From Gemmatimonadaceae bacterium (GTDB lineage Bacteria > Gemmatimonadota > Gemmatimonadetes > Gemmatimonadales > Gemmatimonadaceae), in the NCBI GenBank assembly GCA_019637355.1, contig JAHBVT010000001.1, positions 1,145,192 through 1,209,191 of the forward strand: DNA of 64,000 nt, given 5' to 3'. Position numbers and translations under genes: made by a program. Below the pieces are notes generated by a model. That model did no database searches. It saw only the letters and a program-made list of their open reading frames with translations, and was not told the DNA's origin. The stretch's first letter is position 1, and each line of letters begins with the position of its first letter. Below are positions 1,402-62,271 of the stretch, piece after piece.

Positions 1402-2102
1402 CGGATGCTCACTGCGCGCGCATCTCTGAACTCCGCGAATCGGCGCGGCGGCCGGGGCGCTACGACGTCCGCCTAGAGCCGTCAGGCGAGAAGCTCCCGG
1501 TATCCATAGAACTCATCGCCCAGCTCAAGCTCAATCCGGGCCGCGAACTCAACCCCGCCGAGTACGCGCGCCTCGTGCAGGGCGCCCGCGCCGTCGCCTG
1601 CTACGACAAAGCCCTCGCCACGCTCGGCGCCCGCGCGCGCAGCAGCGCGGATCTCAAACGCTGGCTTAAGACCAAGGACTTCACCGACGCCGAGATCGCG
1701 CCCGTCACCGAGAAGCTCACCGCACTCGGCCTCCTCGACGACCGCGAGTACGCGCGCAGCTTCGCCCGCAGCCGCCTCGCCCCCAGCCGCGGCTTCGGCC
1801 CACGACGCGTCGCCGCGGAACTCGCGAAGCGAGGCGTCCCGCGAGCGATAGTGGACGAGACCCTCGCGGAGCACGCGAGGGAGCAGGAAGCCGAGGCCGC
1901 GGCCATCGCAGAGCAGGGAGGTGAGCCGCGGCTATCGGCCGTCGCGGCCGCAGCGGCGAAGAAGATGAAGGCGCTCGAGAAGCTGGAGCCTGAGATCAAG
2001 CGGAGGCGCCTCTATGGGTACCTCGCGCGCCGGGGATTCTCGGGTGCAGAAATCGGCGCCGTGCTGCGAAAGATTGGGAGAGGGGAGGCGGAAGGCGGGT
2101 GA
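1398..2102 (+). CDS. recX: Regulatory protein RecX
   Basis: Motifs ALATLGARARSSADLKRWL, GLLDDREYARSFARSR, GPRRVAAELAKRGV, RLYGYLARRGFS. Confidence 0.9.
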   Translation: MTDAHCARISELRESARRPGRYDVRLEPSGEKLPVSIELIAQLKLNPGRELNPAEYARLVQGARAVACYDKALATLGARARSSADLKRWLKTKDFTDAEIAPVTEKLTALGLLDDREYARSFARSRLAPSRGFGPRRVAAELAKRGVPRAIVDETLAEHAREQEAEAAAIAEQGGEPRLSAVAAAAAKKMKALEKLEPEIKRRRLYGYLARRGFSGAEIGAVLRKIGRGEAEGG

Positions 2103-2229
2103 CGGCAGGGAGATGAAGAGAGGGGAGATGGCTGAGAGAGGGAAGACGCTCGGGAGATGACCCTCTCCCTTCTCCCAACCATCTCCCCTCTCCCCGCCGT
2201 AACCCACCTCCCCCCTCCCATCTCCCAAC
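2074..2229. repeat. GA/CT-rich long palindromic element, complete copy
   Basis: Purine arm with GGCGGGTGACGGCAGGGAGA and GAGAGGGGAGATGG; pyrimidine arm with TCTCCCAACCATCTCCCCTCTCCCCGCCGTAACCCACCTCC. Confidence 0.85.
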
Positions 2230-2239
2230 CAGCAATCGC

Positions 2240-4792
2240 TCAACCGTCAAGTACCGCCCGGACTGCCCGCTCAAGCGCTTCCAAACCGTACGGCTTAGAA
2301 ATGAAGTGCCCCCCCTCCAGCCCGAACTGCTGCGCCACCGCGTCCCGCGAGTAGCCTGACGTAAACAGCACCCGCAGCCCCGGGATCCGCTCGTGCAGCG
2401 CCGCCGCCAGCTCCGGCCCCGTCATCCCCGGCATCACCATATCCGTGATGAGCAGTTCCACCTGCGGCGTGTCCGCTGCATCCACCAGCGCCAACGCCGC
2501 CTCGCCGCTGCCGGCTTCCAGCACGCGATAGCCGCGCATCGTCAGCACCTTCACCGCCACGCGGCGGATTGCGTCTTCGTCCTCCACCACGAGCACCGTC
2601 TCGCCCTTGTGGACCAGGGGGCCGCCGGCGGCGGGGGTGTGAGCGGCCAGGCCCTCGGCGCGGACCAAGGGCACGTCGCCGGCGTTCACTGCCGACAGCT
2701 TGGTGGGGCCCGAGGGACGCTCGACGATGTCTTCCGGCACGCGCGGGAAGAACAGCTTGAACGTGGTGCCGCGCCCGGGCTCGGAGTACACCCAGATGCT
2801 GCCGCCGATCTGCCGCACGATGCCATACGCCGTCGGCAAGCCGAGCCCGGTGCCCTTGCCGGCGGGCTTGGTGGTGAAGAACGGTTCGAAGATCCGGTCG
2901 CGCGTGACGGCGTCCATCCCGTGTCCGGTGTCGCTCACATAGAGGGCCACGTACTCGCCGGGCTGCACCGTGACGTGCCGCGCCGCCTCGGCGTCGAGCA
3001 CCACGTTCTCGGTGCTGATGGTGAGCGTGCCACCCTCGGGCATCGCGTCGCGGGCGTTGACGCTGAGGTTCATCAGCACCTGCTCCAGTTGCCCGGCGTC
3101 GCCCATCATCTTCCAGAGCTGGTTGCCGGGCTGCACCGCGATGGTGACCTGTTCGCTGATCACGCGGGTGATCAGCGTGACCACCTCGCGCACGACCTGG
3201 TTGAGGTCCAGCACCTTGACCTCGAGCACCTGCTGTCGGCTGAAGGCGAGCAGTTGCCGCGTGAGCCGCGCCCCGCGTTCGCTGGCTTGCTTGATCGTGC
3301 GCAGGTCCTCGTGCAGCTCGCCGTCGGGCGGCACCTGGGCCAGCGCCACTTCCGCGGTGCCGCTGATGACCGTGAGCAGGTTGTTGAAGTCGTGCGCCAC
3401 GCCGCCGGCGAGCCGCCCGATGGCCTCGATGCGCTGCGACTGCTGCAGTTGCAGCTCCAATGCGCGCCGCGCCGTGATGTCGCGCTTGATGGCGATGAAG
3501 TGCGTGATCTCGCCCTGCGCGTCCTTCACCGGCGTGATCGTCTGCTCTTCGGTGTACTCGGTGCCATCCTTCTTTCTATTGATCAATTCGCCGCTCCACA
3601 CCTGGCCCGCGAGCAGCGTGTTCCACATCCGCTCGTAGAATTCGCGGCCTTGGCGGTTGGACTTGATCAGGTCTCGCGGATTCTTCCCCAGCGCTTCCTG
3701 CGCCGGGTACAGCGTCAGCGCGCAAAACGCCGGATTCACCCACTGGAAGTTGCCCTCGCGGTCGGTGATGGCGATGGCGTCGACTGTCGCGCTGAGCGCC
3801 GCCGCCTGCAGCGCGTTGCGCGCCTCGGCGTCGCGCTGCTCCGTGATGTCCACCATCAGGCCCTGCAGGCAGAGCGGCTCGCCGGCGTCGTCGTGCAGCA
3901 CCTGGGCCGTGTCGTGCAGGATGCGATACGTGCCGTCGGCGCGGCGGAATCTGTAGGTGATGTCCACCGCATCGCCGCACGCGCGCTGCTCCTGTAGGCG
4001 CTCGAGCGTCGCCTCCCGGTCCTCCGGGTGCAGGCAAGCCACCCAGAGGTCCGGCGAGGCCGTCCAGGTCTCCACCGAGTAGCCGAGGCGCTGGATGGCC
4101 GGGCTCACGTACAGCGTCGTCGACTGCTCGTCCAGCGCCGCGCGGTACACGATCGCCGGCACCTGCTCCGTGAGCGAGCGGAAGCTCTTCTCGCGCTCGG
4201 CGAGCGCGCGCATCGTGGCGGCGCGATGCAGGCGGTCCTGCAGCAGCCAGCCGAGGAAGACCGCGGCGGCCGCGGAGGCTACGGGTAGCACCGGCGTGAG
4301 GTACCGGAGGTGTTGCCACGTCTCGTCGTCAAACTGCGAGCGCGCCAACCCCAGTTGCATCGCGCCGACCAGCGTCCCCAGCACCACGAACTCCACGACG
4401 TGCAACTCCTCAACCTTCCTCTGCCGCATTTCGCGCCACGCCAGCCCTAGCAACGCCGAGAGCACGATGAACGCAACGCCAACCGGCGCGAAAGCGCCAC
4501 CTACCGCGAGCCGGTACGCCACGGCCATCGCCACCGCGACGCTGGTCGGCAGCGCGCCGAGGAACAGTCCGCTCATCACCAGCAGGATTCCGCGCGTGTC
4601 GAGGTACGCCCCCGGCTCAACTTCCACGCGCGCCAGCATCGCCCCGATTGCCAGCGCCCCGATCAGGAAGCCGAGCAGCAGCTCACCGCGGCGCCCGAGC
4701 CGACTCGTCGTGCGGCGAGTGAACAGGTCGACCACGACTGCGGCGGCGAGCAATAACGCAGCGTTCTGAGCGAACTCGCCAAGGAAGGCCAT
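2240..4792 (-). CDS. Hybrid sensor histidine kinase (5TM LytS/YhcK-like, two PAS, HisKA, HATPase, receiver)
   Basis: H-box GRLAGGVAHDFNNLL; N-box QVLMNLSVNARDAM; G-boxes; receiver VLVVEDEDAIR...LITDMVMPGMTG. Start moved to MAFLGEF because the upstream ORF extension is repeat-derived. Confidence 0.92.
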   Translation of the reverse strand: MAFLGEFAQNAALLLAAAVVVDLFTRRTTSRLGRRGELLLGFLIGALAIGAMLARVEVEPGAYLDTRGILLVMSGLFLGALPTSVAVAMAVAYRLAVGGAFAPVGVAFIVLSALLGLAWREMRQRKVEELHVVEFVVLGTLVGAMQLGLARSQFDDETWQHLRYLTPVLPVASAAAAVFLGWLLQDRLHRAATMRALAEREKSFRSLTEQVPAIVYRAALDEQSTTLYVSPAIQRLGYSVETWTASPDLWVACLHPEDREATLERLQEQRACGDAVDITYRFRRADGTYRILHDTAQVLHDDAGEPLCLQGLMVDITEQRDAEARNALQAAALSATVDAIAITDREGNFQWVNPAFCALTLYPAQEALGKNPRDLIKSNRQGREFYERMWNTLLAGQVWSGELINRKKDGTEYTEEQTITPVKDAQGEITHFIAIKRDITARRALELQLQQSQRIEAIGRLAGGVAHDFNNLLTVISGTAEVALAQVPPDGELHEDLRTIKQASERGARLTRQLLAFSRQQVLEVKVLDLNQVVREVVTLITRVISEQVTIAVQPGNQLWKMMGDAGQLEQVLMNLSVNARDAMPEGGTLTISTENVVLDAEAARHVTVQPGEYVALYVSDTGHGMDAVTRDRIFEPFFTTKPAGKGTGLGLPTAYGIVRQIGGSIWVYSEPGRGTTFKLFFPRVPEDIVERPSGPTKLSAVNAGDVPLVRAEGLAAHTPAAGGPLVHKGETVLVVEDEDAIRRVAVKVLTMRGYRVLEAGSGEAALALVDAADTPQVELLITDMVMPGMTGPELAAALHERIPGLRVLFTSGYSRDAVAQQFGLEGGHFISKPYGLEALERAVRAVLDG

Positions 4793-4857
4793 TCGGGATT
4801 CTCGGGTCTGTGCCGGGTTGGCGCAAGCGTGGGTTTTCGGGGGGCAGTGTGGCCTTC

Positions 4858-4941
4858 GGGTGGGAGTCGGGAGGGGGGAGGGGGGGGTGGCGGTGGGGAG
4901 ACGGGAGGCGGGAGATGGCTGGGAGAAGGGAGATGCTCGGG
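4858..4941. repeat. GA/CT element, single arm
   Basis: gggagtcgggaggggggagggggggtggcggtggggagacgggaggcgggagatggctgggagaagggagatg. Confidence 0.7.
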
Positions 4942-5097
4942 ACCAATGACCTAGGCCACTCGGTGTCTCAAAATGCCTCAGACGCGCCGGAGTAGGTCGC
5001 GCGCGAGTCAGTGTGCCGCACATTGTTCGATCTGCGCCACGGGTGGAGTGGATTTGGAGGCTGTCCGCCGTAGACTCCGTCGGTAAATTCGTCTACT

Positions 5098-39662: not shown

Positions 39663-41198
39663 CTAGCGCCGCCCGGCCGGGCTGACCGCCAGCGTGAACT
39701 CCACCGAGCGCGCGTCGTCCGTGCGATAGCCCGGGATGAAGTCCGCGTTCTGGAACAGGTAGTTGAGTCGCGTGCCGCCGCTGAGCGTGCCGTGGAAGCG
39801 CATCCCGATGCCTTCGAAGCCGCCGCGCAGGCCGGCTTGCAGCGTGACGTCGTGCCGCACGGGGTAGGGGAGGAACTGCCGGTACAGCGCGTCATCGTTC
39901 CATCGCACCCGCTCCACAAACAGCCCCAGCGCATTCGTGCCGCGCTCCCAGTCCATTGAGATGAGCTGCCGCTGCCCGCCCGGCCCCAGCCCGCTGCCCA
40001 GCGGCTCGCCGCGATGCGTCCAGCCGTGGATCACCGTCGGTGACGTGTACAGGTCTTGATCGACGCGGCCCACCCGCTGCGGCGGCATCTCCAGCCGCGC
40101 CGCCTCGAAGCCGAGGATCCACTTGGCGCCGTTGCGCTCGAACAGCACTTGGCTCATCCCGAGCCGGATCGCCAGGCCTTCGCCCGGCATCAGCGTGAGA
40201 TCTCGGAATTCCCGCAGCGGCGCCTGACGCGCGACTTCCATCCACAGCATCGTGCCCGCCTCGGCGTGCGCGAAGCGCAGGTCTGCCGAGAGCATCTCGA
40301 TTACGCTGTCGGTGCCCGCGCGGCCAAAGGGCAGGGCCGCGGCCGCCAGCGGCGCACGCGACGTGCGTCCATCCATCACCGTGCGCGAAAGCCCCACGCG
40401 CCACAGCGGCCGCGCGTAGCTCAGCCGCGCACCCGCCACGCCGCGGCGATTGTTGTCAGGGTCCGTGTCGAAGAAGCGGCTTTCGATCGCCGCGCCGCCG
40501 AACCAGCGCAGCTCCAGTGCACCGGCCAACAACGGCTGCCGCCACGACGCCTCCAAGCGTGGCAGGCCCGCCGAGCTTCGGCCTAGCACCAATCCTTCGC
40601 CGATGCCTGGGCCCCAGTCGGGCAGGGCAGTCGTTGCGCCCAGCGTCCACTGCCGGCCCGTGGCCCACACACCGCTCTCGCCCAGATCAAACTGCGTGAT
40701 CGGACTCGTGCCGTGTCGGCTCGGTAGGTCCGCCGAGTAGTCGCCGAAGTACCACGGCGAGGACTGGCCGCTGCGCGTGGAATCGCCGGCCGGGAAGGTG
40801 AGGAAGGAGCCGTTCTGGGCCGAGCTGAGTTCCGGCGCGAAGCGCAGCGTCAGCCACTGCCGGCGCCACTCGAAGCCCGCGCGCATCTGCAGCGCCCGCC
40901 CGACGCCCGCCGGCGCCGCGCCGTTCCCGCGCCCGTCCGCCACGCCCGAGCGCCGCCCCGTGATGCCGACGGGACCGAGCGGCGTGAAGCCTTCGCGCAC
41001 GCAGACGCTGTCGCGCCGCGTGTGGTGGAGCGGCAGTGTGAAGTCGAGCGGCGAGACGTCGGTGATGCAGCGGCGCTCCTGGGCGCCGGCGGGCGTGATG
41101 GCGATGACTGCCAACACCAGTACACCGCGCAGATTCGCCAGTGCTGAGGCGATCTCGCTGGCGACTCCAGTCGCGAGGCAATGGCGTTGGCGCGGCAT
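39663..41198 (-). CDS. Second Wzi-like capsule-assembly outer-membrane protein (start uncertain)
   Basis: Motifs WGPGIGEGLVLGRSSAGLPR, HGWTHRGEPLGSGLGPGG; paralogous to 30083-31474. Confidence 0.65.
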   Translation of the reverse strand: MPRQRHCLATGVASEIASALANLRGVLVLAVIAITPAGAQERRCITDVSPLDFTLPLHHTRRDSVCVREGFTPLGPVGITGRRSGVADGRGNGAAPAGVGRALQMRAGFEWRRQWLTLRFAPELSSAQNGSFLTFPAGDSTRSGQSSPWYFGDYSADLPSRHGTSPITQFDLGESGVWATGRQWTLGATTALPDWGPGIGEGLVLGRSSAGLPRLEASWRQPLLAGALELRWFGGAAIESRFFDTDPDNNRRGVAGARLSYARPLWRVGLSRTVMDGRTSRAPLAAAALPFGRAGTDSVIEMLSADLRFAHAEAGTMLWMEVARQAPLREFRDLTLMPGEGLAIRLGMSQVLFERNGAKWILGFEAARLEMPPQRVGRVDQDLYTSPTVIHGWTHRGEPLGSGLGPGGQRQLISMDWERGTNALGLFVERVRWNDDALYRQFLPYPVRHDVTLQAGLRGGFEGIGMRFHGTLSGGTRLNYLFQNADFIPGYRTDDARSVEFTLAVSPAGRR

Positions 41199-41216
41199 CG
41201 TGGCGAACGTTCACCG

Positions 41217-42350
41217 ATGCCTCCGTCGCCGACAAGGGCCGCCCCCGCAGGTCCTGCCGCCCCTGCTGCGCGTGCCGCCCCTCGTGTGCTGATCGTGAAG
41301 TTGGCCGCAATGGGCGACATCGTGATGGCGTCGACGCTGATCGGCGCCGTGCGCGACCGCTGGCCCGACGCCCAAATCACCTGGCTCACCGGCGACCAGT
41401 TCGCGCCGCTCGTGCGCCGTTTCGAGGGCGTAGATGTGGTGCGTAGTGTCGACGCCGAGTCACTCCTCGCCGGCCCCGCCTTCCGCGCCGCCCACCGCGC
41501 CCCTCACGCCGCCCTCAAGCGCGCCGCCGCCATCGCCAGCACCGTCCGCGCCATCGGCCGCCGCCCCTGGGACCTCGCCCTCGTCGCCCACAGCGATGAG
41601 CGCTACGCGCAACTCCTCCGCTTCGCGAAGGTGCGGGACTTGAGGCAGTTCAAAGAGCCGAGGAAGGACCGCTATATGGGCCTGGAGTACTCCTCGATGT
41701 TGGAAGATGCTGGACCTTCATCTCCCCTCTCCCCCGTCCTCTCCCCTCTCCCATCTCCCCGCCATAACCCACCTCTCCACCTCCCATCTCTCACTCAGCT
41801 CAACAAGCAACAACCTGCCCGCCGAGTCACTCTCGCCCCCGGCGGCGCCCGCAACCTCCTCCGCGACAACCCCCTGCGTCGCTGGCCCGTCGAGAGCTGG
41901 GCTGCGCTCGCGCGCGAGCTCAAGGCGGCCAACTGCGAGCTCACGATCATCGGCGCCGCGAGCGATCGCGCCGAGGCTGATGTGGTGCTCGCCGCCGTCC
42001 CCGACGCGCGTGACGAAGTCGGCAAGCAGGACCTCGACGCACTCCTCGCCGAGCTCGCCAGCAGCGATGTGCTCGTGACCCACGACTCCGGCCCGATGCA
42101 CCTCGCGCAGCTCACGCGCACGCCGGTCGTGGCGCTCTTCGGCCCGACGAGCCCGACGCAGTTCGTGGCGCCGGGGGCGGACGTGACGGTGCTCAGCGCG
42201 GCGCAGCATCTCCCCTGTGCGCCCTGTTATGACGGGAAGGATTACGCGGTGTGCTCGGCGAATCTCTGTCTTAGCCGCGTTGGTCCGGAGATGGCCGCAG
42301 GCACTGTCCTGGCGGTACTGGCTGGGAGGCGGGAGAAGGGAGGCGGGTGA
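41217..42350 (+). CDS. Glycosyltransferase family 9 (heptosyltransferase-like) with an in-frame repeat insertion
   Basis: Motifs VLIVKLAAMGDIV, RRWPVESW, VTHDSGPMHLA, VALFGPT. Confidence 0.9.
   Translation: MPPSPTRAAPAGPAAPAARAAPRVLIVKLAAMGDIVMASTLIGAVRDRWPDAQITWLTGDQFAPLVRRFEGVDVVRSVDAESLLAGPAFRAAHRAPHAALKRAAAIASTVRAIGRRPWDLALVAHSDERYAQLLRFAKVRDLRQFKEPRKDRYMGLEYSSMLEDAGPSSPLSPVLSPLPSPRHNPPLHLPSLTQLNKQQPARRVTLAPGGARNLLRDNPLRRWPVESWAALARELKAANCELTIIGAASDRAEADVVLAAVPDARDEVGKQDLDALLAELASSDVLVTHDSGPMHLAQLTRTPVVALFGPTSPTQFVAPGADVTVLSAAQHLPCAPCYDGKDYAVCSANLCLSRVGPEMAAGTVLAVLAGRREKGGG
41718..41795. repeat. GA/CT element, pyrimidine arm inserted in-frame in the GT9 gene
   Basis: tcatctcccctctcccccgtcctctcccctctcccatctccccgccataacccacctctccacctcccatctctc matches the right arms of the intergenic copies. 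Confidence 0.8.
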
Positions 42351-42515
42351 GGGCGGGGAGAGGGGGAGATGGTTGAGAGAGGGAAGAGGGTTTGGGAGAT
42401 GGGTTTGGGAGACGGATGGGGAGGCGGCCATCTCTCGTCTCTCCGCCGTCTTCCGTGAGCCGCCTCCCCGCCGTCACCCACCTCCCGTCTCCCCCCTCCC
42501 ACTCGCCCCAAGCAC
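42322..42515. repeat. GA/CT long palindromic element
   Basis: Purine arm gggaggcgggagaagggaggcgggtgagggcggggagaggggagatggtt...; pyrimidine arm ...ccccgccgtcacccacctcccgtctccc. Confidence 0.85.
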
Positions 42516-43581: not shown

Positions 43582-43815
43582 CGGACGGGGAGAAGGGAGG
43601 GGGAGAGGGGGGTGAAGGCAGGGAGAGGGGAGAAGGGAAGGGGCTGGGAGAGGGCACAGGGTCGCCCCCATCTCCCCGTCCTCTCCCGACCATCTCCCCT
43701 CTCCCGACCATCTCCCCTCTCCCGACCATCTCCCCGCTCCCGACCATCTCCCCTCTCTCAACCATCTCCCCCCGCCCACCTCCCCGCCGTCACCCTCCTC
43801 CCCCCTCCCGTGTCC
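43582..43815. repeat. GA/CT long palindromic element with five tandem 18-mers (CTCTCCCGACCATCTCCC) in the right arm
   Basis: Immediately 3' of the tRNA; the 18-bp periodicity is visible at 43681-43770. Confidence 0.88.
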
Positions 43816-43918
43816 CGATTCCGGTTCGTGACCTAGCTCTCTTGACACCATTAGAGCCACCAACGAACTTCTGCCAGTTACCCGCCCAAGCCCCTTCGCT
43901 CCCTCTTCGGAGATTTCG

Positions 43919-47979: not shown

Positions 47980-48906
47980 ATGCACGCCCAGCCTTCCAGG
48001 CAACTCGTCGTTGCCGTCCTTGCACTCGCGGTGCTCGGGATCTCCATCTCCGGCCCGCTCGCGCGGCTCGCCGACGCGCCACCGCTCGCGATCGCCGTGT
48101 GGCGCCTCGCGCTCTCGCTCTGCATCGTCGCCGTGCCGTTGCTCGGCACCGGCCGTTGGCGCGAGTGGCGCGGGCTCGCCGGGCGCGACCTCGCCATCGC
48201 GATGGGCGCCGGGGCCTTCCTCGCGCTGCACTTCTGGAGCTGGATCGCCTCGCTCGGCCTCACCAGCGTCGCCGCCAGCGTGCTGCTCGTGAACCTGCAT
48301 CCTGTCGTCATCGTGATCGGCTCGGCGCTGTGGCTGCGCGAGCATCCGACGCGCACGCAGCTGATCGGCATCGGCATCGCCGTCGTCGGCGCCGCATACG
48401 TCGCACTCGGCGGCGCGGCGAGTGATGTGGCGCTCGGCGACGCGACGCTCGCCCGCGCCACTCTCGGCAACGGCCTCGCCCTGCTCGGCGCCGTCACCGT
48501 CGGTCTCTACTACCTCGCCGGCCGCAGTCTCCGCCAACGCCTCTCGCTGTGGCCGTACGTCGGACTCGTGTACGGCTGCTGCCTCGTCGTGCTGCTCCTG
48601 CTCGCCGCGTTCACCCGCACGGCGCTCTGGCCCTTCGCGCCGCGCGAACTCACGCTCTTCGCGCTCATTGCCTTCGGCCCGATGCTCGCCGGCCACACCG
48701 GATTCAACTGGGCGCTGCGGTATGTGCCGGCGTATGTGGTGAGTCTGTGTCTGCTGGCGGAGCCGGTGGGGGCGGGGCTGATTGCGGCGGTGATGCCGGG
48801 GGTGCGGGAGGTGCCGGCGGGGTCCGTCGTGGTGGGAGGGGTTGTGGTGCTCTTGGGGGTTGGGGTCGGGTTGTACGCTGGGAAACGGGAGGCGGGAGGG
48901 GGGTGA
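47980..48906 (+). CDS. DMT/EamA-family transporter
   Basis: Ten TM segments; motifs FLALHFWSWIASL, SVAASVLLVNLHP, GHTGFNWAL, EPVGA. Confidence 0.92.
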   Translation: MHAQPSRQLVVAVLALAVLGISISGPLARLADAPPLAIAVWRLALSLCIVAVPLLGTGRWREWRGLAGRDLAIAMGAGAFLALHFWSWIASLGLTSVAASVLLVNLHPVVIVIGSALWLREHPTRTQLIGIGIAVVGAAYVALGGAASDVALGDATLARATLGNGLALLGAVTVGLYYLAGRSLRQRLSLWPYVGLVYGCCLVVLLLLAAFTRTALWPFAPRELTLFALIAFGPMLAGHTGFNWALRYVPAYVVSLCLLAEPVGAGLIAAVMPGVREVPAGSVVVGGVVVLLGVGVGLYAGKREAGGG

Positions 48907-49050
48907 CGGCAGGGAGATGGGAGACGAGAGAGGGCCGGGTCAGGGGAGAGGGTCGGGAGAAGGGCTCCTCTCCCGACCTTCTGCCATCTCTCAGCCATCT
49001 CCCCTGTCCCACCTCCCCGCCATCACCCACCTCACCGTCTCCCCTCTACC
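48882..49050. repeat. GA/CT long palindromic element
   Basis: Purine arm gggaggcgggaggggggtgacggcagggagatgggagac...; pyrimidine arm ...ccatctcccctgtcccacctccccgccatcacccacctc. Confidence 0.85.
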
Positions 49051-49062
49051 TTTATCGGACCA

Positions 49063-50376
49063 ATGATTAAGCCTCCCGCCTCCGTGCAATCCCTGACGCG
49101 CACCCTCGAACAGGCCGGCCACGCCGCCTGGTGCGTCGGCGGCGCCGTGCGTGATGCCCTCCTTGGCATCGAGACGCTCGACTGGGATCTCGCCACAAGC
49201 GCGCGGCCGGAGCAGGTGCAGAAGCTCTTCAAGCGCACCATCCCCGTCGGCATTCAGTTCGGCACGGTCGGCGTGCTCGATCGCGATGGCGTGTTGCACG
49301 AGGTCACGACCTTCCGGCACGATGTCGAGACAGACGGCCGGCACGCGGTGGTGAAATTCGGCGCCTCGCTCGAGGAAGATCTCGCGCGCCGCGACTTCAC
49401 CATCAATGCGATCGCGGTGCACGCCGAGCGTCTTGAGATGCGCGATCCCTTCGATGGGCGCGGCGACCTGGAGCGACGCGTCGTGCGCTGCGTGGGTGAT
49501 GCCGCCGAGCGGATGCGTGAGGATCGGCTGCGCGCGCTGCGGGCGCTGCGATTCGCTGGGCGCTTCGACTTCAGCATCGAGCCCGCGACCTGGAGCGCCA
49601 TCGTCGAGAGCGCGCCGCATCTCGGGCGGCTGTCGATGGAGCGCGTGAAGCAGGAGCTTGAGAAAGTGATGGAGCAGGTGGCGCGCCCCGCCGCGACGAT
49701 AGAGCGCTATCGCGAGGCCGGCATCCTCCGTGCGCTGGTGCCCGCCATCGCCGATGCGCCCGCCGCGCGCTTCGCCGCGCTCGATTACCTCGCGCGCCCC
49801 GGCCTCACGCGGCGTCCCGACCGCCGGATGCTGCGTCTCGCAGCGCTGTTCATCGAACCCGGCGTGACGCCGCCCAAGCAGCTCGAGGCCACGCTCAAGG
49901 CCCTCAAATTCAGCAACGTCGAAGCCCGCGCCGCTGTGACGCTCGCCGAGGCCGCCGGCCGCGTGAGTCTCGCGCGCCTGCGCGAACTCGCGGCGGCGCT
50001 GCAGCAGTCCGCCACCGCGCCCACTAGCGAAGCGGCAGTCGAGCTGCGCAAGATCATCGCGCAGGCCGGTCGCCTGATGGTCCCCGGCCTCACGCGCATC
50101 CTGTGGGCGCGCGCCAAGGCCGAGGGCGCCACCGCCGCCGACGGACTCGCCGGACTCGGCCTCTACCGCCGCGCGCTGCGCAGCGCCTTCACCGACCCCC
50201 TCAGCATCGCCGACCTCGCCGTCGACGGCGAGGACCTGCAATCGGCAGGCATCCCCCCCGGCAAGCCACTCGGCGACGCGCTCAAGGCGCTGCTCGAGTG
50301 GGTGCTCCAGGACCCCTCGCGCAACCAGCGCGATGAACTGCTCGCGCGCGCGAGGGAACTCGCGAGCGCGAAATAG
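49063..50376 (+). CDS. cca: CCA tRNA nucleotidyltransferase
   Basis: Motifs VGGAVRDALLG, DWDLAT, EVTTFR, DLARRDFTINA, EDRLRALRALRF. Confidence 0.9.
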   Translation: MIKPPASVQSLTRTLEQAGHAAWCVGGAVRDALLGIETLDWDLATSARPEQVQKLFKRTIPVGIQFGTVGVLDRDGVLHEVTTFRHDVETDGRHAVVKFGASLEEDLARRDFTINAIAVHAERLEMRDPFDGRGDLERRVVRCVGDAAERMREDRLRALRALRFAGRFDFSIEPATWSAIVESAPHLGRLSMERVKQELEKVMEQVARPAATIERYREAGILRALVPAIADAPAARFAALDYLARPGLTRRPDRRMLRLAALFIEPGVTPPKQLEATLKALKFSNVEARAAVTLAEAAGRVSLARLRELAAALQQSATAPTSEAAVELRKIIAQAGRLMVPGLTRILWARAKAEGATAADGLAGLGLYRRALRSAFTDPLSIADLAVDGEDLQSAGIPPGKPLGDALKALLEWVLQDPSRNQRDELLARARELASAK

Positions 50377-51658: not shown

Positions 51659-52275
51659 GCGACGCACTCACGCCCGAGGTCGCCGCCTTGGTGCGCCTCT
51701 CCGCGCGAATCGCGATCGGCAGCGAGTTCGAGATCCGCGCCGGCTGCGCCGAGGTCGTCGCCGCCGAGGTGCCGACGCCGTGGGTGGAGGAGTGCATCCT
51801 CCAGAGCTACCTGATGGCCGGCTTCCCGCGCACGCTCAACGCGATGCGCGAGTGGCGCCGCGTCAGCGGCGTCGAGGCCCCGGAGCCTGAAGAGATTCCC
51901 GAGCCGAGCCTGTGGCGCTGGCGTCAGCAGGGAGAACAGACCTGCGAGATCGTCTACGGCAAGTTCTACACGAAGCTCCGCGAGAACATCGCGCATCTGC
52001 ATCCCGCACTCGACGAGTGGATGATCGTCGAAGGCTACGGCAAGATCCTCTCGCGCCCGGGCTTAGAGCTCAAGCTACGCGAGCTCTGCATCGTCGCCGC
52101 CTGCGCCGCGATGGGGCAGGACCGGCAACTGCACTCGCATCTGCACGGCGCGGTGAACGCGGGGGCGACAGGCGCGGAGGTCGCGGGGACGCTCGCGGCG
52201 ATTGAGGGGCTGGTCGAGGAGGCGCATCTGTTGCGCGCTCGACTGCTGTGGGCGCGGGTTCACGGAAAGGCTTGA
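51655..52275 (+). CDS. Carboxymuconolactone decarboxylase (AhpD-like) family protein
   Basis: Motifs YGKILSRPGL, RELCIVAACA, QLHSHLHGAVNAGAT. Confidence 0.88.
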   Translation: MSDALTPEVAALVRLSARIAIGSEFEIRAGCAEVVAAEVPTPWVEECILQSYLMAGFPRTLNAMREWRRVSGVEAPEPEEIPEPSLWRWRQQGEQTCEIVYGKFYTKLRENIAHLHPALDEWMIVEGYGKILSRPGLELKLRELCIVAACAAMGQDRQLHSHLHGAVNAGATGAEVAGTLAAIEGLVEEAHLLRARLLWARVHGKA

Positions 52276-52278: not shown

Positions 52279-52470
52279 GGCGGGGAGGAGGGAGGGGGAG
52301 AGGAGGGAGAGGGCGGGGAGAGGGGAGAAGGACGATGGCTGAGAGACGGCAGAAGGTCGGGAGATGGGCGCCCTCTCCCAACCATCCGCCCTCTCCCAAC
52401 CATCTCCCCTCTCCCAACCATCTCCCCTCTCCCGTCCACCCGCCGTCACCCACCTCCCATCTCCCAGCTC
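52279..52470. repeat. GA/CT long palindromic element
   Basis: Right arm has tandem CTCTCCCAACCATCTCCC units and ccgccgtcacccacctccc. Confidence 0.85.
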
Positions 52471-52533
52471 CCAGCCGTCGAGCGCAACGAATCGATGCTG
52501 CCGCCGCCGTGAACCCGCTAGATTTCCCAGCCA

Positions 52534-55971: not shown

Positions 55972-57018
55972 ATGGCCAACGCCGAGCTCTCCGATCGCGA
56001 ACGCCAGGTCCTCGAGGCCGTGATTCGCTCCTACGTGGAGACCGCCGAGCCGGCGGGCTCCCGTACGATCAGTCGGCGCTTCGGGCTGGGCGTGTCTCCG
56101 GCCACCATCCGCAATACGATGGCTGACCTGGAGGAGAAAGGCTTCCTCTTCCACCCGCACACCTCGGCGGGCCGCATCCCGACGGACAAGGCCTATCGCT
56201 TCTATGTAGATGGGCTGATGCACCTGGACCGCCCGCTGCCGCTGCAGGAGCGTGAGCGCCTGGCGGAGGAGATCGGCGAGCGGGGCTCGGCGATTGAGAC
56301 GATCCTCAGGCGCGCGGCCCAATCCCTGGGCGTGCTTACACAGGAACTCGGCGTCGCCCTCGGCCCGCGCCTCGACCAGACGGTGCTCACGAAGCTCGAG
56401 TTGGTGCGGATGAGCACGGAGCGCTTGATCTTGGTGCTGACGCTGCGGGGCGGGGCGGTGCGCACGATCTTCATCGAGATCGCCGGTGAGATCGCGGACA
56501 ACGCCATCGCCGAAGTGCAGCAGGTGCTCAACGAACGCCTCGCGGGCCACTCGCTCGCCGAGATCCGCGCCAGCCTCGCCGCGCGCTTGCGTGACGTCGT
56601 GGCGCCGGGCGGCGCGACGGAGTTGCTGAACATCTTCGTGCAGGAGGGCGAACAGCTCTTCGACGTCGCCGCGGCGGCGGACGAGGAGAGCGTGCTGCTC
56701 GGCCAGGCCTCAGTGCTCGCGGAGAAGCCGGAGTTCGCGAGTGGCGATCGGCTGCGGCAGCTGATCGCGCTCACGGAGACGCGCACGCAACTGGCGGGGC
56801 TGCTCCGCCAGCGCGCGGCGCAGCCGGGCGTGTCGATCACGATCGGTGACGAGCACGGCGTGGGGTTGCTCGGGGGACTCACGCTGGTGACGGCGGAGTA
56901 CCGGGCGGGGTCGCTGACGGGGGTGATTGGGGTGATTGGGCCGACGCGGATGCCTTATGAGAAGGTTATTGCTTTGGTGTCCCATACGTCTTCGTTGGTT
57001 ACGGATTTGCTTGCTTAG
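55972..57018 (+). CDS. hrcA: Heat-inducible transcription repressor HrcA
   Basis: Motifs SPATIRNTMADLEEKG, HPHTSAGRIPTDKAYRFYVD, IGVIGPTRMPY. Confidence 0.97.
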   Translation: MANAELSDRERQVLEAVIRSYVETAEPAGSRTISRRFGLGVSPATIRNTMADLEEKGFLFHPHTSAGRIPTDKAYRFYVDGLMHLDRPLPLQERERLAEEIGERGSAIETILRRAAQSLGVLTQELGVALGPRLDQTVLTKLELVRMSTERLILVLTLRGGAVRTIFIEIAGEIADNAIAEVQQVLNERLAGHSLAEIRASLAARLRDVVAPGGATELLNIFVQEGEQLFDVAAAADEESVLLGQASVLAEKPEFASGDRLRQLIALTETRTQLAGLLRQRAAQPGVSITIGDEHGVGLLGGLTLVTAEYRAGSLTGVIGVIGPTRMPYEKVIALVSHTSSLVTDLLA

Positions 57019-57126
57019 ATGGTGGGGGAGGGGAGATGGGAGGGGGGTGACGGCGGGGAGAGGGGAAAGGGGAGAGGGTTGGGAGAGGGGAGAGGGTTGG
57101 GAGAGGGGAGAGGGTTGGGAGAGGGT
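57019..57126. repeat. GA/CT element left (purine) arm flanking the four-helix-bundle gene
   Basis: gggagatgggaggggggtgacggcggggagagggg followed by three GGGAGAGGGTTGGGAGAG-type 18-mers. Confidence 0.88.
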
Positions 57127-57129
57127 TTC

Positions 57130-57585
57130 TTATATCCGCTTGAAGTCGCGGTTGGTGGTGCGGCGTTGGCTTTCGATCAAGCGCAGGAGCATTGCGCGCA
57201 CCTTCGACAGAAGGGATTGGCGGTGGGTGTGGTGCGCTTCGGGGATTACGTCGGCGGCGGCGATGTACCAGGTGATGGCCTCGCGGGCTGAGCCGAGGGC
57301 GTAGCTGAAGAATCGAATGCGATCGGCGCTGCCGGCGCGGCTGTAGCCCTCGGCGAGGTTGGCGCTCACGGAGCCGACGGCGCGCTCAAGTTGGTCGGCG
57401 ATGCCGCCGCGATATCGCGCGCGCAGGGCGCGTGCGTCCTCCTTCGCGCAGTGGAGGATGAAGAGCGCGGCACGGTACACGTGCAGCTTCCATAGGAGAT
57501 CCTGCCGCAAGGCCTCGGGGCAGGCGAGCTCCCACGCTTCCTGCGAGGGTGGCAGGTCGGTGTGGAACGAGGATTGCTTAGGCAT
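57130..57585 (-). CDS. Four helix bundle protein (23S rRNA IVP / bAvd-like superfamily)
   Basis: DQLERAVGSVSANLAEGYSR...RFFSYALGSARE motif. Confidence 0.9.
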   Translation of the reverse strand: MPKQSSFHTDLPPSQEAWELACPEALRQDLLWKLHVYRAALFILHCAKEDARALRARYRGGIADQLERAVGSVSANLAEGYSRAGSADRIRFFSYALGSAREAITWYIAAADVIPEAHHTHRQSLLSKVRAMLLRLIESQRRTTNRDFKRI

Positions 57586-57595
57586 AGCCGAGCAT

Positions 57596-57740
57596 ATCCC
57601 CTCTCCCCTCTCCCTGAATCATCTCCCCATCTCCCCCCTCACCACCATCTCCCCTCTCCCCAAATCATCTCCCCTCTCCCAACCATCTCCCCTCTCACAT
57701 CTCCCCGCCGCCACCCACCTCCCCACCTCCCGTCTCCCAC
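57596..57740. repeat. GA/CT element right (pyrimidine) arm flanking the four-helix-bundle gene
   Basis: Tandem CCATCTCCCCTCTCCC units ending catctccccgccgccacccacctccccacctcccgtctccc. Confidence 0.88.
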
Positions 57741-57755
57741 TAGTTTTACGCTCAA

Positions 57756-58889
57756 ATGGCCGATTACTACGCAACCCTCGGACTCCCCAAATCCGCCTCC
57801 GACGACGACATCAAGTCCGCGTATCGGAAACTGGCGACCAAGTTCCATCCCGACCGCAACGGGGGCTCCAAGGAAGCCGAGGAGCAGTTCAAGGCGATCA
57901 CCGAGGCCTACGACGTCCTGCGCGATCCGCAGAAGCGCGCGGCCTATGATCGCTACGGCGAGGCGGGCCTGCGAGGCGGGATGGGCGGCGCGGGGGGCTT
58001 CCACCACGTCGATCTGTCCGAAGCGCTGAACATCTTTATGCGCGACTTCGGGCTCGGCGACATCTTCGGCGGCGGGCAGGGTGGCCGGCAGTCGTCGGGG
58101 CCGCGCGCCGGCGCCGACGTGAAGGTGGATATGCAGCTGACGATACTCGAGGTGGCGACGGGCGTCACGAAGACGATCAAGCTGAAGCTGCTGGACCCCT
58201 GCACGCGCTGCACGGGCTCGGGCGCGGAGCCGGGGACGTCACCGTCGCGCTGCACGACCTGCAATGGCCAAGGCGAAGTGCGCCGCGCGCAGCAGAGCTT
58301 CTTCGGGCAGTTCGTGTCGGTGGCGCCGTGCCCCACCTGCCGCGGCGAGGGAGTGATGATCGCCTCGCCCTGCAAGGAGTGCCGCGGCGAAGGTCGCGAG
58401 CGCGGCGAGCACACGATCGACCTCAAGGTCCCAGCCGGTGTGGCGACGGGCCAGTATATGCACCTGCGCGGCGTCGGTAACGCCGGCGTGCGTGGCGGTC
58501 CGCGCGGGGATGTCATCGTGGTGTTCGAAGTGCTCGAGGACGATCGCTTCGAGCGCGACGGCGAGGACCTCTACTGCGAAGTCTTGGTCACGTACCCGCA
58601 GGCCGTCCTTGGCGCCGACCTCGACGTGCCCGGCGTGACCGGTCCGCTCACGCTGCGGATGCCCGAAGGCACGCAGAGCGGCGAAGTCTTCGTGCTCCGC
58701 GGCCGCGGCCTCCCGCGCGTGAACGCCAGCGGCGCCGGCGACCTGCACGTGCGCGTGCAGGTGTGGACGCCGGCGAAGCTCTCGAAGGAGGAGACGAAGC
58801 TGATCGAGCAGCTGCACGAGGTGCAGGCGCGACCGCCGGAGAAGCGCGAGAAAGGCTTTTGGGCGAAGATGAAGGAAGCCTTAGGGTGA
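57756..58889 (+). CDS. dnaJ: Chaperone DnaJ
   Basis: HPD motif and four CxxCxGxG zinc repeats. Confidence 0.98.
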   Translation: MADYYATLGLPKSASDDDIKSAYRKLATKFHPDRNGGSKEAEEQFKAITEAYDVLRDPQKRAAYDRYGEAGLRGGMGGAGGFHHVDLSEALNIFMRDFGLGDIFGGGQGGRQSSGPRAGADVKVDMQLTILEVATGVTKTIKLKLLDPCTRCTGSGAEPGTSPSRCTTCNGQGEVRRAQQSFFGQFVSVAPCPTCRGEGVMIASPCKECRGEGRERGEHTIDLKVPAGVATGQYMHLRGVGNAGVRGGPRGDVIVVFEVLEDDRFERDGEDLYCEVLVTYPQAVLGADLDVPGVTGPLTLRMPEGTQSGEVFVLRGRGLPRVNASGAGDLHVRVQVWTPAKLSKEETKLIEQLHEVQARPPEKREKGFWAKMKEALG

Positions 58890-58896
58890 TGCTGCG

Positions 58897-59105
58897 AGAC
58901 GGGAGGCGGGAGGTGGGTTAGGACGGGGAGATGGCAGGAGAGACACGACGGGAGAGACGGAACACGGCTCCATCTCTCCACCCTCTCCCAACCCTCTCCC
59001 CTCTCCCAACCATCTCCCCTCTCTCAACCATCTCCCCTCTCTCAACCATCGTCCTTCTCCCCATCTCCCTCCCGTCACCCTCCTCTCCACCTCCCACCTC
59101 CCAGC
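58897..59105. repeat. GA/CT long palindromic element
   Basis: Purine arm gagacgggaggcgggaggtgggttaggacggggagatgg; tandem 18-mers ctctcccaaccatctccc; ccgtcaccc. Confidence 0.85.
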
Positions 59106-59107
59106 CA

Positions 59108-59944
59108 GTGACGAAGAGCTGGACCCGCGTTTCACTCCATCCCTCTTCAACGGGGAAGAAGCCAGACGTCTCCGCCGCAATGTTCCAAGCCGGCGCCGAG
59201 GGCCTGCACGAGCTCGACGACGCGCTCGTGACGCATCTGCCCGCGTCCACCGACGCAGACGCGTTCGTCCGCGCGGTGAAGGCAGCAGATCCGGCGTTGC
59301 GCGCGGAGATCAGCCCGCTCGAGGACACCGACTGGGCCGAGAAGTGGAAGGAGCGCATCACGTCGCATCAGCTTGGCGCATTGATGGTGACGCCGCCGTG
59401 GTTGGCCGCGGGGTGCGATCCGGCGACGACGATCGTCATCGAGCCGGCGATGGCCTTCGGCACGGGCGAGCATCCGACGACGCGCGGCGTCGTGCGCTTG
59501 ATGCAGGGCGTGATCCGCACCGGTGATGCGGTGGCGGACCTCGGCTCGGGGTCGGCGGTGTTGGCGATCGCGGCGGCCAAGCTGGGTGCGGCGCGCGTGT
59601 ATGCGATCGAGATCGATCCCGACGCCACGGGGAACGCCGAGGAGAACATCGCGCGCAATGGCGTCGGCGATCGCGTGGCGGCGCTCGAAGGCGACGCGTC
59701 GCTGTTCCTGCCGCTGGTGGCGCCGGTGCGCGTGATCCTCGCGAACATCATCTCGTCGGTGCTCGTGGACCTGCTGCCGCTGATGGCGATGACCTTGGCG
59801 GACGACGGCGTGATCATCCTCTCGGGCATCCTGCGCGAGGAGCGTGAACGGATGGTCACGGCGCTGCGCGATGGCGGCTGGCGCTTGGACGCCGAGGACG
59901 CCGAAGACCAGTGGTGGAGCGTGCGATGCACGAAGGCCGCGTGA
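59108..59944 (+). CDS. prmA: Ribosomal protein L11 methyltransferase
   Basis: Motifs DWAEKWK, IEPAMAFGTGEHPTT, DLGSGSAVL, ANI, LSGI. Confidence 0.93.
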   Translation: MTKSWTRVSLHPSSTGKKPDVSAAMFQAGAEGLHELDDALVTHLPASTDADAFVRAVKAADPALRAEISPLEDTDWAEKWKERITSHQLGALMVTPPWLAAGCDPATTIVIEPAMAFGTGEHPTTRGVVRLMQGVIRTGDAVADLGSGSAVLAIAAAKLGAARVYAIEIDPDATGNAEENIARNGVGDRVAALEGDASLFLPLVAPVRVILANIISSVLVDLLPLMAMTLADDGVIILSGILREERERMVTALRDGGWRLDAEDAEDQWWSVRCTKAA

Positions 59945-60031
59945 GTGGGCTGACCTCTTCCGTCACGGCCGCGTGAGTGTGCTGACCATTTCCGTCACGG
60001 CCGCGTGAGCCTGCCGACCTTCTTCGCCGAC
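59935..60031. repeat. 32-bp tandem triplication of the prmA-stop / rsmE-start junction
   Basis: ggccgcgtgagtgggctgacctcttccgtcac / ggccgcgtgagtgtgctgaccatttccgtcac / ggccgcgtgagcctgccgaccttcttcgccgac. Confidence 0.85.
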
Positions 60032-60769
60032 GAGGCCTTCGCCGCGCCGTCGCAGGTGACGCTCGGCGAAGACGCGGCGCACCATATGCGCGTGCGGCGC
60101 CTGGAGATCGGCGCGCGCGTGCGGCTGCTCGACGGGCAGGGCACGCGCGGCGAAGGCGTGCTCACGCAGTTGGCGAAGCGCCACGCGACGGTGGCGGTGG
60201 AAGCAGCCGCGTATAGCGAGCCGCCGGCGCCGGTGCACCTGCTGTTGCCGGTGGCGGACAAAGATCGGATGCTGTGGCTCGCGGAGAAAGCCACGGAACT
60301 CGGCGTCGCGAGTTGGCGGCCGGTGCTCTACCGGCGCTCCAAGCACGTGAATCCGCGCGGCGAGGGGCCGGTGTTCCAGCAGAAGCTGCGTGCGCGGATG
60401 ATCAGCGCATTAGAGCAGTCCGGTGGCAGTTGGTTGCCGACGATGTATCCCGACGCATCGGTGGAGCACGCGATCAGTGCTGCGCCTCAGGGCATTGCGC
60501 TGGTGCTCGACGCAGGGGCGCCGTCGGTGTGGGAGGTGCTCCGCGGTGCCGGAGGTGGGAGCGTCGGCTCGGGCACCGCGGCGGCAGCGGCGCCCGCGCA
60601 GGGTGGCATCAGCGTCGCGGTCGGGCCGGAAGGCGGCTTCGAACCTGCCGAGCGCGCCGCGCTCGAGGCGGCGGGCTTCCGGCCGGCCGCCCTCGGGCCG
60701 AACGTGCTGCGCTTCGAGACGGCGGCGGTGGCGGCCATCGCCGTCGCGCGCGCCGCGCTACCTTTCTGA
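60005..60769 (+). CDS. rsmE: 16S rRNA m3U1498 methyltransferase RsmE
   Basis: Motifs HHMRVRRL, EKATELGV, ALEQSG, VGPEGGF, LGPNVLRFETA. Confidence 0.95.
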   Translation: MSLPTFFADEAFAAPSQVTLGEDAAHHMRVRRLEIGARVRLLDGQGTRGEGVLTQLAKRHATVAVEAAAYSEPPAPVHLLLPVADKDRMLWLAEKATELGVASWRPVLYRRSKHVNPRGEGPVFQQKLRARMISALEQSGGSWLPTMYPDASVEHAISAAPQGIALVLDAGAPSVWEVLRGAGGGSVGSGTAAAAAPAQGGISVAVGPEGGFEPAERAALEAAGFRPAALGPNVLRFETAAVAAIAVARAALPF

Positions 60770-60808
60770 GCCGCGCCCTGCGGCCGACACCAACTTCATC
60801 GGGTCCGT

Positions 60809-61150
60809 ATGAGCACCGAGTGCCTCTTCTGTCAGATCGTGAAGAAAGAAATCGAGGCGACCATCGTCGCCGAGACTGAGCACGCGCTCGCGTTTCACGA
60901 CATCGCGCCGCAGGCGCCAGTGCACGTGCTGGTCGTTCCGAAGAAGCACTACAGCTCGATGAACGAGATGCCCGACGGCTCGGTGCTCGGCGCCGTGGCC
61001 TCGTTGGCCAAGCAGGTGGCGAAGGACCTCGGCATCGCCGAGGGCGGCTATCGCGCGGTGGTGAACACCGGGGAGCAGGGTGGGCAGACCGTGCCCCACC
61101 TCCATATGCACCTCCTCGGCGGGCGCGCGATGAAGTGGCCGCCGGGGTGA
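60809..61150 (+). CDS. Histidine triad (HIT/Hint) nucleotide-binding protein
   Basis: Motifs CLFCQI, PQAPVHVLVVPK, QTVPHLHMHLLGG. Confidence 0.95.
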   Translation: MSTECLFCQIVKKEIEATIVAETEHALAFHDIAPQAPVHVLVVPKKHYSSMNEMPDGSVLGAVASLAKQVAKDLGIAEGGYRAVVNTGEQGGQTVPHLHMHLLGGRAMKWPPG

Positions 61151-62271
61151 GGGTCGCGCTCGTCCACGAGTGGCTCCTCACGCACGGCGGCTCGGAGGAG
61201 ATCACCGGCCAGCTCTGCCAGCTGTTCCCGGACGCGGACCTCTACACGCTGATTGCCGACCCTGTCCCGTCGCTGCGCGCCCTGATCGGCAATCGCCGCA
61301 TCCGCACCTCCTGGCTGCAGCGCATTCCCGGCGCCACGCGCCATCATCGTCGCCTCCTGCCGTTGATGCCGCGGGCGATCGAGTCGTTCGACTTCAGCGA
61401 CTACGACCTCGTCATCAGCGTCAGCCACGCCGTGGCGAAGGGCGCACGCACGTCGGGGAGGACCGAGCACCTGAACATCTGTTGTTCGCCGATCCGCTAC
61501 GCTTGGGATCTCGAGGAGCAGTATCTCGAAGAGGCCGGACTCTCGCGCGGCCTCAAGGGCGTCGCCGCCCGCGCGCTGCTCGCGCGCATCCGCGCCTGGG
61601 ACCGTCGCAGCGCTGACCGTCCGACGCGCGTGCTGGCAATCTCGCGCTTCATCGCCGAGCGGGTGCATCGCGTGTGGGGCCGCGACAGCGAGGTGCTGTA
61701 TCCGCCGGTGGAGACGGAGTACTTCGGTCAGCCCACCGGCGTGGCACGCGAGCACGACCTCTACGTGACGGCCTCGCGCTTCGTCCCCTACAAGCGCATC
61801 CCGCTGATCGTCGAAGCCTTCGCCCAGATGCCGACGCGGCGCCTCGTCGTCATCGGCGACGGCCCCGAGATGCCCAAGGCCCGCGCCGCCGCGACACCGA
61901 ACGTGACGTTCCAGGGCCGCGTCCCGCGCGCCGAGCTGCGCGAGTGGCTGCAGCGTGCCCGCGGCTTCGTCTTCGCCGCCGAGGAGGATTTCGGCATCGC
62001 CCCGGTCGAGGCGATGGCCGCCGGCACCCCGGTGGTCGCGTACGGCCGCGGCGGCGCCCGCGAGACCGTGGTCGGAGAGGGAGAAGCCCGGACGGGCGTG
62101 TTCTTTGAGGCCCAGTCCGTTGAGGCGATCGTGGACGCGGTGCGGCGGCTTGAGGAGGCTGGCGTGCGCTCGACTGACTGCGTGGCGCGGGCGGAGCTGT
62201 TTTCGGTGGCTGAGTTTAGGCGGAGAGTGGTTGGCCTCACGAGTGGGAGAGGGGAGGCGGTAGGGGGGTGA
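61147..62271 (+). CDS. Glycosyltransferase family 4
   Basis: Motifs VALVHEWL..HGGSE, SRFVPYKR, EEDFGIAPVEAMAAG. Confidence 0.92.
   Translation: MRVALVHEWLLTHGGSEEITGQLCQLFPDADLYTLIADPVPSLRALIGNRRIRTSWLQRIPGATRHHRRLLPLMPRAIESFDFSDYDLVISVSHAVAKGARTSGRTEHLNICCSPIRYAWDLEEQYLEEAGLSRGLKGVAARALLARIRAWDRRSADRPTRVLAISRFIAERVHRVWGRDSEVLYPPVETEYFGQPTGVAREHDLYVTASRFVPYKRIPLIVEAFAQMPTRRLVVIGDGPEMPKARAAATPNVTFQGRVPRAELREWLQRARGFVFAAEEDFGIAPVEAMAAGTPVVAYGRGGARETVVGEGEARTGVFFEAQSVEAIVDAVRRLEEAGVRSTDCVARAELFSVAEFRRRVVGLTSGRGEAVGG

Follow-up and report, generated by a model that had tools for sequence, protein, structure and literature searches.

A palindromic repeat supplies the C-terminal tails of unrelated proteins in a Gemmatimonas genome, probably as tolerated insertion scars

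Why should four unrelated proteins of one bacterium end in the same short peptide? The question is raised by a 64,000-nucleotide window (positions 1145192-1209191 of the assembly; GenBank GCA_019637355.1, contig JAHBVT010000001.1) from a Gemmatimonadaceae bacterium. In this stretch of DNA, RecX, a GT9 heptosyltransferase, an EamA transporter and a GT4 glycosyltransferase all finish in a tail read from a purine-rich palindromic repeat. A first-pass annotation of the window had offered two readings: either the repeat targets the ends of coding regions and only frame-preserving insertions survive, or it confers a functional tag, such as a degron or a coupling signal. The tails are very unlikely to be a functional tag; they are best explained as tolerated insertion scars at dispensable last codons, with purifying selection against long tails probably producing the frame bias.

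The four tails and their stops are found exactly where the first-pass annotation had placed them, and its claim that the last codons and the TGA are encoded by the element in one common frame holds at all four sites. RecX ends in ...LRKI-GRGEAEGG, GT9 in ...VLA-GRREKGGG, EamA in ...LYA-GKREAGGG and GT4 in ...LTS-GRGEAVGG. The final eight codons and the TGA of each gene are the outer 27 nt of a purine-rich arm, GGGAGRNGGGAGGNGGNAGGNGGG-TGA-SGGCRGGGAG, and the reading frame through the arm is identical in the four. Pfam domains are present in every case, which identifies these as genuine genes:

1398..2102, plus strand, RecX gene with three RecX HTH domains; element-derived part, last 8 codons 2076-2099 and stop 2100-2102
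41181..42350, plus strand, GT9 heptosyltransferase gene (start codon uncertain, 41181 or 41286); element-derived tail 42324-42347, stop 42348-42350
47980..48906, plus strand, EamA/DMT transporter gene; element-derived tail 48880-48903, stop 48904-48906
61135..62271, plus strand, GT4 glycosyltransferase gene; element-derived tail 62245-62268, stop 62269-62271

The arm belongs to a lineage-restricted, non-coding palindromic repeat found in the very short spacers between genes of this Gemmatimonas genome; no earlier description of the family seems to exist. A complete element is ~150-230 bp long, and both of its arms are purine-rich when read inward. Each arm opens with a conserved head (...GGGAGRNGGGAGGNGGGAGGNGGG-TGA-CGGCGGGGAG), behind which 18-nt GGGAGAGGGGAGATGGTT units are repeated in varying number. 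Within the window, 22 matches to the 16-nt core around the TGA were counted (two mismatches or fewer), compared with 0.5 expected from shuffles. The copies that supply the four tails are:

2074..2228, element copy 1, ~155 bp, TTGGGAGAGG...CCATCTCCCAA, between the convergent RecX and histidine-kinase genes; -102.9 kcal/mol, z = -10.6
42324..42503, element copy 2, ~180 bp, between GT9 and a convergent tRNA gene; -117.9 kcal/mol
48880..49052, element copy 3, ~173 bp, occupying the spacer between EamA and cca (cca ATG at 49063); -115.6 kcal/mol
62245..62472, element copy 4, ~228 bp, with several 18-nt inner units; -132.6 kcal/mol

A census of the whole assembly (3.15 Mb, 68.7% GC) was made using a regular expression for the core together with a filter on the purine content of the upstream sequence. 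It recovered 67 arms. Inverted pairs of 157-234 bp number 15, two more pairs are long and 37 arms are solo, so that the family shows both terminal inverted repeats and dispersal in many copies. Two other search methods were abandoned. An nhmmer arm profile lost most copies to composition-bias correction, and a 46-nt weight matrix matched the inner tandem units as well as the heads. Their distribution is strongly clustered: the interval from 0.56 to 1.37 Mb holds about three quarters, a second concentration lies at 2.2-2.44 Mb, and ~20 of the 67 fall in the 64-kb window. At genome position C1:989100-989190, a long (CCTT)n microsatellite of ~20 units comes after a solo arm.

Gene ends were related to the arms by classing each arm according to its outer neighbour gene. 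Genes were called over the whole genome using a home-made greedy codon-usage finder working on whole open reading frames; start codons from this finder are unreliable. Earlier codon-score frame calls on 80 codons were dropped because a frame and its antisense shadow were not separable. Twenty-five arms face the 3' end of a gene. In eight of these, the gene ends at the inner TGA of the arm, so the genome-wide census doubles the four window genes. The additional tails belong to an NTPase_I-T protein (PGDGRRGGG), RarA/MgsA (SGRSEEGGG), a hypothetical protein (VRREGGGG) and a 329-aa protein with only a sub-threshold Pfam match (SGRGEKGGG), each sequence running up to the stop. Seven of the eight tail-bearing genes are confirmed through Pfam or orthologues.

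Two further genes read into an arm in other frames. A Maf-like protein uses the second frame and closes at a copy-specific TAG stop (at -8) with the tail GQRRG, while an Ada/MGMT-like protein uses the third frame, stops at +32 and gains 20 residues. Nine genes, including those for SecA, AccC, HrcA and a sigma factor, have native-looking C-termini with the arm 0-2 nt past the stop; at the remaining six arms, the gap to the gene is 10-90 nt.

Eight of the ten genes which read into an arm therefore use the frame observed in the window (binomial p = 0.0034 against 1/3). The frame of element-derived stops is not random genome-wide, as the first-pass annotation had anticipated. This bias is explained by the structure of the arm, since only the observed frame gives a short tail. 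Read from the outer edge, this frame closes after 9 codons in all 62 TGA-bearing arms. The other two stay open for a median of 64 and 59.5 codons in the same arms, reach a stop by codon 12 in only 15% and 2% of cases, and translate into low-complexity sequence of G, E, R and W; each is used once, by the Maf-like and Ada/MGMT-like proteins. An exact-pattern scan of metagenome contigs returned only chance matches within coding genes of other organisms, and it provides no independent replicate of the frame test.

Orthologues without the element end normally. Seven of the eight tail proteins could be compared, and no orthologue examined carries the tail, in agreement with the element origin proposed in the annotation. 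RecX orthologues end in ...VLRKL[NRSK], where the protein here has ...LRKI and the tail. RarA orthologues end within ~2 codons of the junction (here ...MLAEQ plus tail). Three of four relatives of the NTPase_I-T protein end exactly at the junction residue (...YAR; here ...FER plus tail) and the fourth ends 5 residues past it. Relatives of the 329-aa protein end 1-6 residues past the junction (here ...VEEL plus tail), and GT9 orthologues 0-4 residues past it (...LLPSA, ...LLG, ...LLA). Distant EamA orthologues have 6-12 unrelated, mostly basic residues after the last helix. GT4 orthologues have 13-17 unrelated residues after a conserved ...FR, compared with 7 native and 9 element-coded residues here.

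Since relatives without the element end normally near the junction, the tails come from the element. Orthologues end 0-10 codons from this point, so that the element stands in for the final 0-10 codons and the protein keeps its total length. Native spacers at these sites are short in relatives: 9 nt from RecX to the convergent kinase gene, 10 nt from EamA to cca and 17 nt from RarA to the next gene.

Sister lineages show what happens to the tails afterwards. The closest RecX homologues (metagenomic, 72-73% identity) represent three lineages, and all have purine-encoded tails starting from the same junction: GRREE, GKGEEEKGSDGWEE and GSGRMRDDGGS, each followed by a stop and each different. The underlying DNA aligns with the arm in two lineages and weakly in the third, and it has decayed in each. 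In the lineage with GRREE, a G-to-T change creates an earlier TAA, and TTA stands at the former TGA. In the lineage with GKGEEEKGSDGWEE, an indel places GTGAC out of frame, and the gene is read through to a later stop. The lineage with GSGRMRDDGGS retains only a short, poorly aligned relic of the arm.

EamA provides a second example. In sister lineage S1 (SRR12908307; 85% identity), the full orthologous element is present with a canonical core, and the tail is GRREVGGG. Both nucleotide changes between this tail and that of the present genome (G000) are non-synonymous; all tail substitutions observed between G000 and S1 are either non-synonymous or stop-creating. In lineage S2 (84% identity), the palindrome has collapsed, joining ~8 nt of the left arm to ~40 nt of the right arm; what remains of the right arm now supplies a TAA stop for EamA, giving the tail ARRRQP, and the GGG end is lost. 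Across lineages which share an insertion, tails range from 5 to 14 aa and vary in sequence and stop codon. The GT9 and tRNA sites are syntenic in S1 and contain no full element; the tRNA site has a plain 37-nt hairpin with ends resembling the outer ends of the element.

Collapsed palindromes are seen at L059:1915-1975 (S2) and L067:3640-3680 (S1), where the outer ends are joined, the centre is lost and a short hairpin or none remains. Such elements may have left behind some of the short terminator-like hairpins in relatives. Across 54 other species of the GTDB genus, the arm core is no commoner than background; the idea that the element is unique to this genome was nevertheless rejected, as S1 carries the arm core. 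The sister-lineage comparisons indicate that the element family is a long-standing resident of this clade, with some insertions older than the lineage splits. Three other members of the genus (G004, G006 and G007) have different purine/pyrimidine palindromes or GTGAC...GTCAC hairpins directly past stops at the same loci (L023 downstream of RarA, L029, L049, L051 and L052). A broader set of elements therefore turns over at gene ends in the genus.

Long frames are tolerated in places, as two genes contain arms in frame. In an MsbA-like ABC exporter (genome C1:898790-898930), a solo arm and tandem units add ~40 residues (GWEMGDGEVGDGGERGDG...; GWEMGDGEVGDGGERGDGRRMGEGRGMGEGRGMGEGRG) to the linker between the membrane and ATPase domains. 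The second case lies within GT9 itself; in the alignment, its closest orthologues lack ~10 of the residues of this arm and differ over ~20 more:

41718..41795, minus strand, solo arm inside GT9; core 41755-41770 (minus strand), pyrimidine strand read in frame as ...PLSPVLSPLPSPRHNPPLHLPS...

Taken as insertion scars, the tails would arise as follows. A copy would land on the last 0-10 codons of a gene, which would then read into the arm. One frame would meet the conserved TGA after 8-9 codons, giving the ending G-[RK]-x-E-x-G-G-G. The other two frames would remain open for ~60 codons, and such insertions would rarely be retained. After insertion, the sequence of the tail would drift freely. 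Selection, rather than the insertion machinery, would account both for the frame bias and for the closeness of arms to 3' ends, and the repeat presumably spreads by some form of transposition. This retains one half of the first reading in the annotation, the survival of frame-compatible insertions, which is well supported (9 codons against medians of 64 and ~60).

Several observations weigh against this explanation. Arms crowd gene 3' ends more than random landing in spacers would lead one to expect: the median gap from arm to gene is -1 nt there, compared with 54 nt at gene starts (Mann-Whitney p = 2e-8). The nine arms lying 0-2 nt past native-looking stops (SecA, AccC, HrcA, sigma factor) leave room for an insertion preference. 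G000 and S1 keep the EamA frame and stop over ~15% protein divergence, as weak selection on the tail would also give. Finally, the frame test rests on ten events, some of which are perhaps shared by descent with each other's neighbours, and the gene calls behind the census come from a crude finder in which start codons are especially unreliable.

The first two of these observations would be expected if the insertion machinery preferred stop codons or the hairpins that follow genes. Such a preference is compatible with scars being tolerated, and it is a possibility worth keeping in mind, although a fairly unlikely one. One arm begins ~10 nt past the 3' end of a tRNA gene, ~30% of the arms which do not face a gene end have TGA or TAG at their outer edge, and the ends of the 37-nt hairpin at the tRNA site in S1 resemble the outer ends of the element. 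However, neither a target-site duplication nor a conserved flank motif is found at the 15 complete copies, no transposase is linked to the element, and arms also lie beside gene starts and in frame inside the ABC exporter and GT9. With native spacers of only 9-17 nt, any tolerated landing falls near a stop. The difference between 3' and 5' ends is explained equally well by the sparing of the promoter or ribosome-binding site of the downstream gene, and the start-codon calls underlying the 5' gaps are crude. For these reasons the targeting half of the reading in the annotation is not upheld.

A different possibility is that the selected feature is the placement of the stop, and not the peptide: a weak-context GGG-TGA-C would follow GGAGG-like runs ~27 nt inside a hairpin of ~-100 kcal/mol. 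The hairpins of 13 folded complete copies are indeed stable (-92 to -146 kcal/mol, z = -7 to -16). The TGA lies within the predicted stem, ~27 nt from its base, in all 13, and all three bases are paired in 12; in copy 1 (2074..2228), the first and third bases of the TGA are paired. GGAGG/GGGAGG runs are repeated in the arm, a run of six or more G directly precedes the TGA, and several downstream genes start ~10-30 nt from the other arm. In E. coli, REP hairpins that lie ~15 nt or less from a stop codon reportedly lower translation through ribosome stalling and tmRNA. That the stop has been selected for its position is nonetheless improbable: conservation of the core extends to arms which no gene reads, so this role is not what maintains the TGA; in S2 and the RecX sister lineages, the gene persists although the hairpin is gone or the stop has shifted; and most genes adjacent to an arm stop before it.

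If stop placement did matter, ribosomes ending in the hairpin would open it. The consequence would be an effect on termination efficiency, on stalling and rescue, on -1 slippage along the G run into a long frame, or on exposure of the downstream start; regulation of this kind is as doubtful as the stop placement itself. There is a similarly small chance that the element combines both properties, as a portable stop-in-stem regulator which also prefers stop codons as landing sites, the shared tail being no more than its visible trace.

The weakest explanation is the second one given in the annotation, in which G-[RK]-x-E-x-GGG is a selected functional tag (a degron, or a sorting or partner-binding signal) conferred by the element; eight unrelated proteins do share the tail in one frame, the EamA frame and stop are kept in G000 and S1, and which residues come last can shift bacterial protein levels several-fold (PMC7246954), but a tag is very unlikely because the proteins differ in function and compartment, the tail is missing from relatives and changes rapidly, and the core is equally conserved where it is untranslated. 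One of the eight is a membrane transporter; the other seven are enzymes of the cytoplasm or soluble proteins of uncharacterised function, and no pathway or compartment is common to the set. Their orthologues work without the tail. Tails differ among lineages with the same insertion (S2 lacks even the GGG end, and one hairpin is lost); such a lack of conservation in the donated peptide speaks against a degron or tag. In the 59 arms whose inner TGA does not terminate a gene, this DNA is just as well conserved. The idea of a ubiquitin-like or Pup-like GG end was also dropped, because neither fold nor context supports it and sister lineages have lost the GG.

Insertion scars at gene ends have a close precedent in Coxiella burnetii. 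QMITE1 and QMITE2 are small, palindromic, non-autonomous repeats which, in functional genes, overlap only the 3' end (ubiB, pntAA, mutT, nagZ, ogt, recN and ruvB); they provide the last residues and the stop, and protein size is roughly unchanged (Wachter et al. 2018, PMC5896051). The products of pntAA and CBU_2058 share one tail, and occasional in-frame internal insertions are known (PMC5896051). The repeat described here behaves in the same way: it overlaps the 3' ends of eight genes, supplies residues and stop, and leaves length unchanged in the seven compared. In contrast, it has no sequence relationship to the QMITEs. These have direct repeats and a link to IS1111, whereas neither a target duplication nor a partner transposase is found here. 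Strictly polypurine/polypyrimidine arms with 18-nt tandem units set the present repeat apart, and the design with one short frame and the resulting frame bias are not described for QMITEs.

Other known repeats share single features. Rickettsia palindromic elements are ~150 bp palindromes which persist in frame inside unrelated genes (summarised in PMC10969869). The arms within the ABC exporter and GT9 persist in the same manner; the resemblance is one of behaviour only, and no membership is claimed. Unlike the elements here, the Rickettsia elements encode a conserved peptide and their copies are mostly internal. Copies in this genome are mostly intergenic, their usual effect is a C-terminal tail and stop, and the peptide is low-complexity G/E/R.

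REP/BIME/REPIN sequences are closest in architecture. They are extragenic palindromes which occur as single arms and inverted pairs just past stops, cause no target duplications and form stable mRNA hairpins; the 37 solo arms and 15 pairs here correspond to REPIN singles and inverted doublets. However, a REP measures ~35 nt and the arms here ~45 nt before their tandem units are counted, and REPs are normally untranslated. When the whole assembly (96.5% complete) was searched in six frames, no Y1/RAYT transposase (PF01797) was detected; the same search matched 6 of 14 control genomes.

The E. coli BoxC/PIT/TMECO repeats (Holder et al. 2015, PMC4666352) are likewise intergenic and GC-rich, and are built from mirror-symmetric purine blocks (GGGNGAGGG). 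Both GGGAGAGGG and GGGTGAGGG are found in the arms here, and no mobilising enzyme is known for either family. Elements here differ in being long simple palindromes. Using the published consensus (PMC4666352), the motif CCCTCNCCC-N3-6-GGGNGAGGG-N3-GGGNGAGGG gave zero strict and zero relaxed class I/II matches genome-wide. A classical miniature inverted-repeat transposable element would leave a target-site duplication; no direct repeat or common target is present in the flanks of the 15 complete copies. In a scan of the window against Rfam 15, only two tRNAs scored above the gathering threshold, and the element matches no family.

The only gene found between two arms encodes a PF05635 protein and not a transposase, no full transposase survey having been made; other arm pairs 2-3 kb apart enclose ordinary genes. 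The left arm of the long copy begins 2 nt past the native hrcA stop (57016-57018). This copy and the remaining copies considered in the window are:

43586..43819, element copy beginning ~10 nt past a tRNA gene; no protein tail
52281..52475, element copy with AGA in place of TGA in the left arm; begins ~5 nt past the stop of the upstream gene (52273-52275)
57021..57740, long element copy; between the same arms lies a gene for a 151-aa PF05635 protein (23S rRNA intervening-sequence protein), minus strand, 57130-57585
58891..59104, element copy with TTA in place of TGA in the left arm; begins 2 nt past the stop of the gene 57756-58889

A second PF05635 gene, at C1:1842570-1843190, is bracketed by inverted arrays of a different purine-rich repeat (GACGTGAGACTTGAGAC units), and this cassette starts directly past the stop of a pyrophosphatase-like gene. 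Both PF05635 genes of the genome are thus flanked by inverted purine-rich/pyrimidine-rich arrays, as in a cassette with inverted repeats. However, the gene is carried by only 1 of ~50 element copies, and the link is by association only. We know of no mobility function for PF05635 four-helix-bundle proteins.

Elsewhere in the window, the genome-trained codon-usage finder calls almost no genes between 17000 and 27000. This suggests a region of atypical composition, possibly with acquired polysaccharide genes.

The finding opens no new mechanism; protein ends written as a by-product of insertion are already known in other bacteria. It does provide a clean case, from the little-studied Gemmatimonadota, of small palindromic repeats rewriting the ends of proteins, together with a simple rule for which insertions persist: those in which the reading frame closes quickly. 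The sister lineages add a history of the scars through new stops, frame shifts and palindrome collapse. When genomes are annotated, a low-complexity C-terminal tail found in identical form on unrelated proteins should be taken as repeat-derived and not as a motif.

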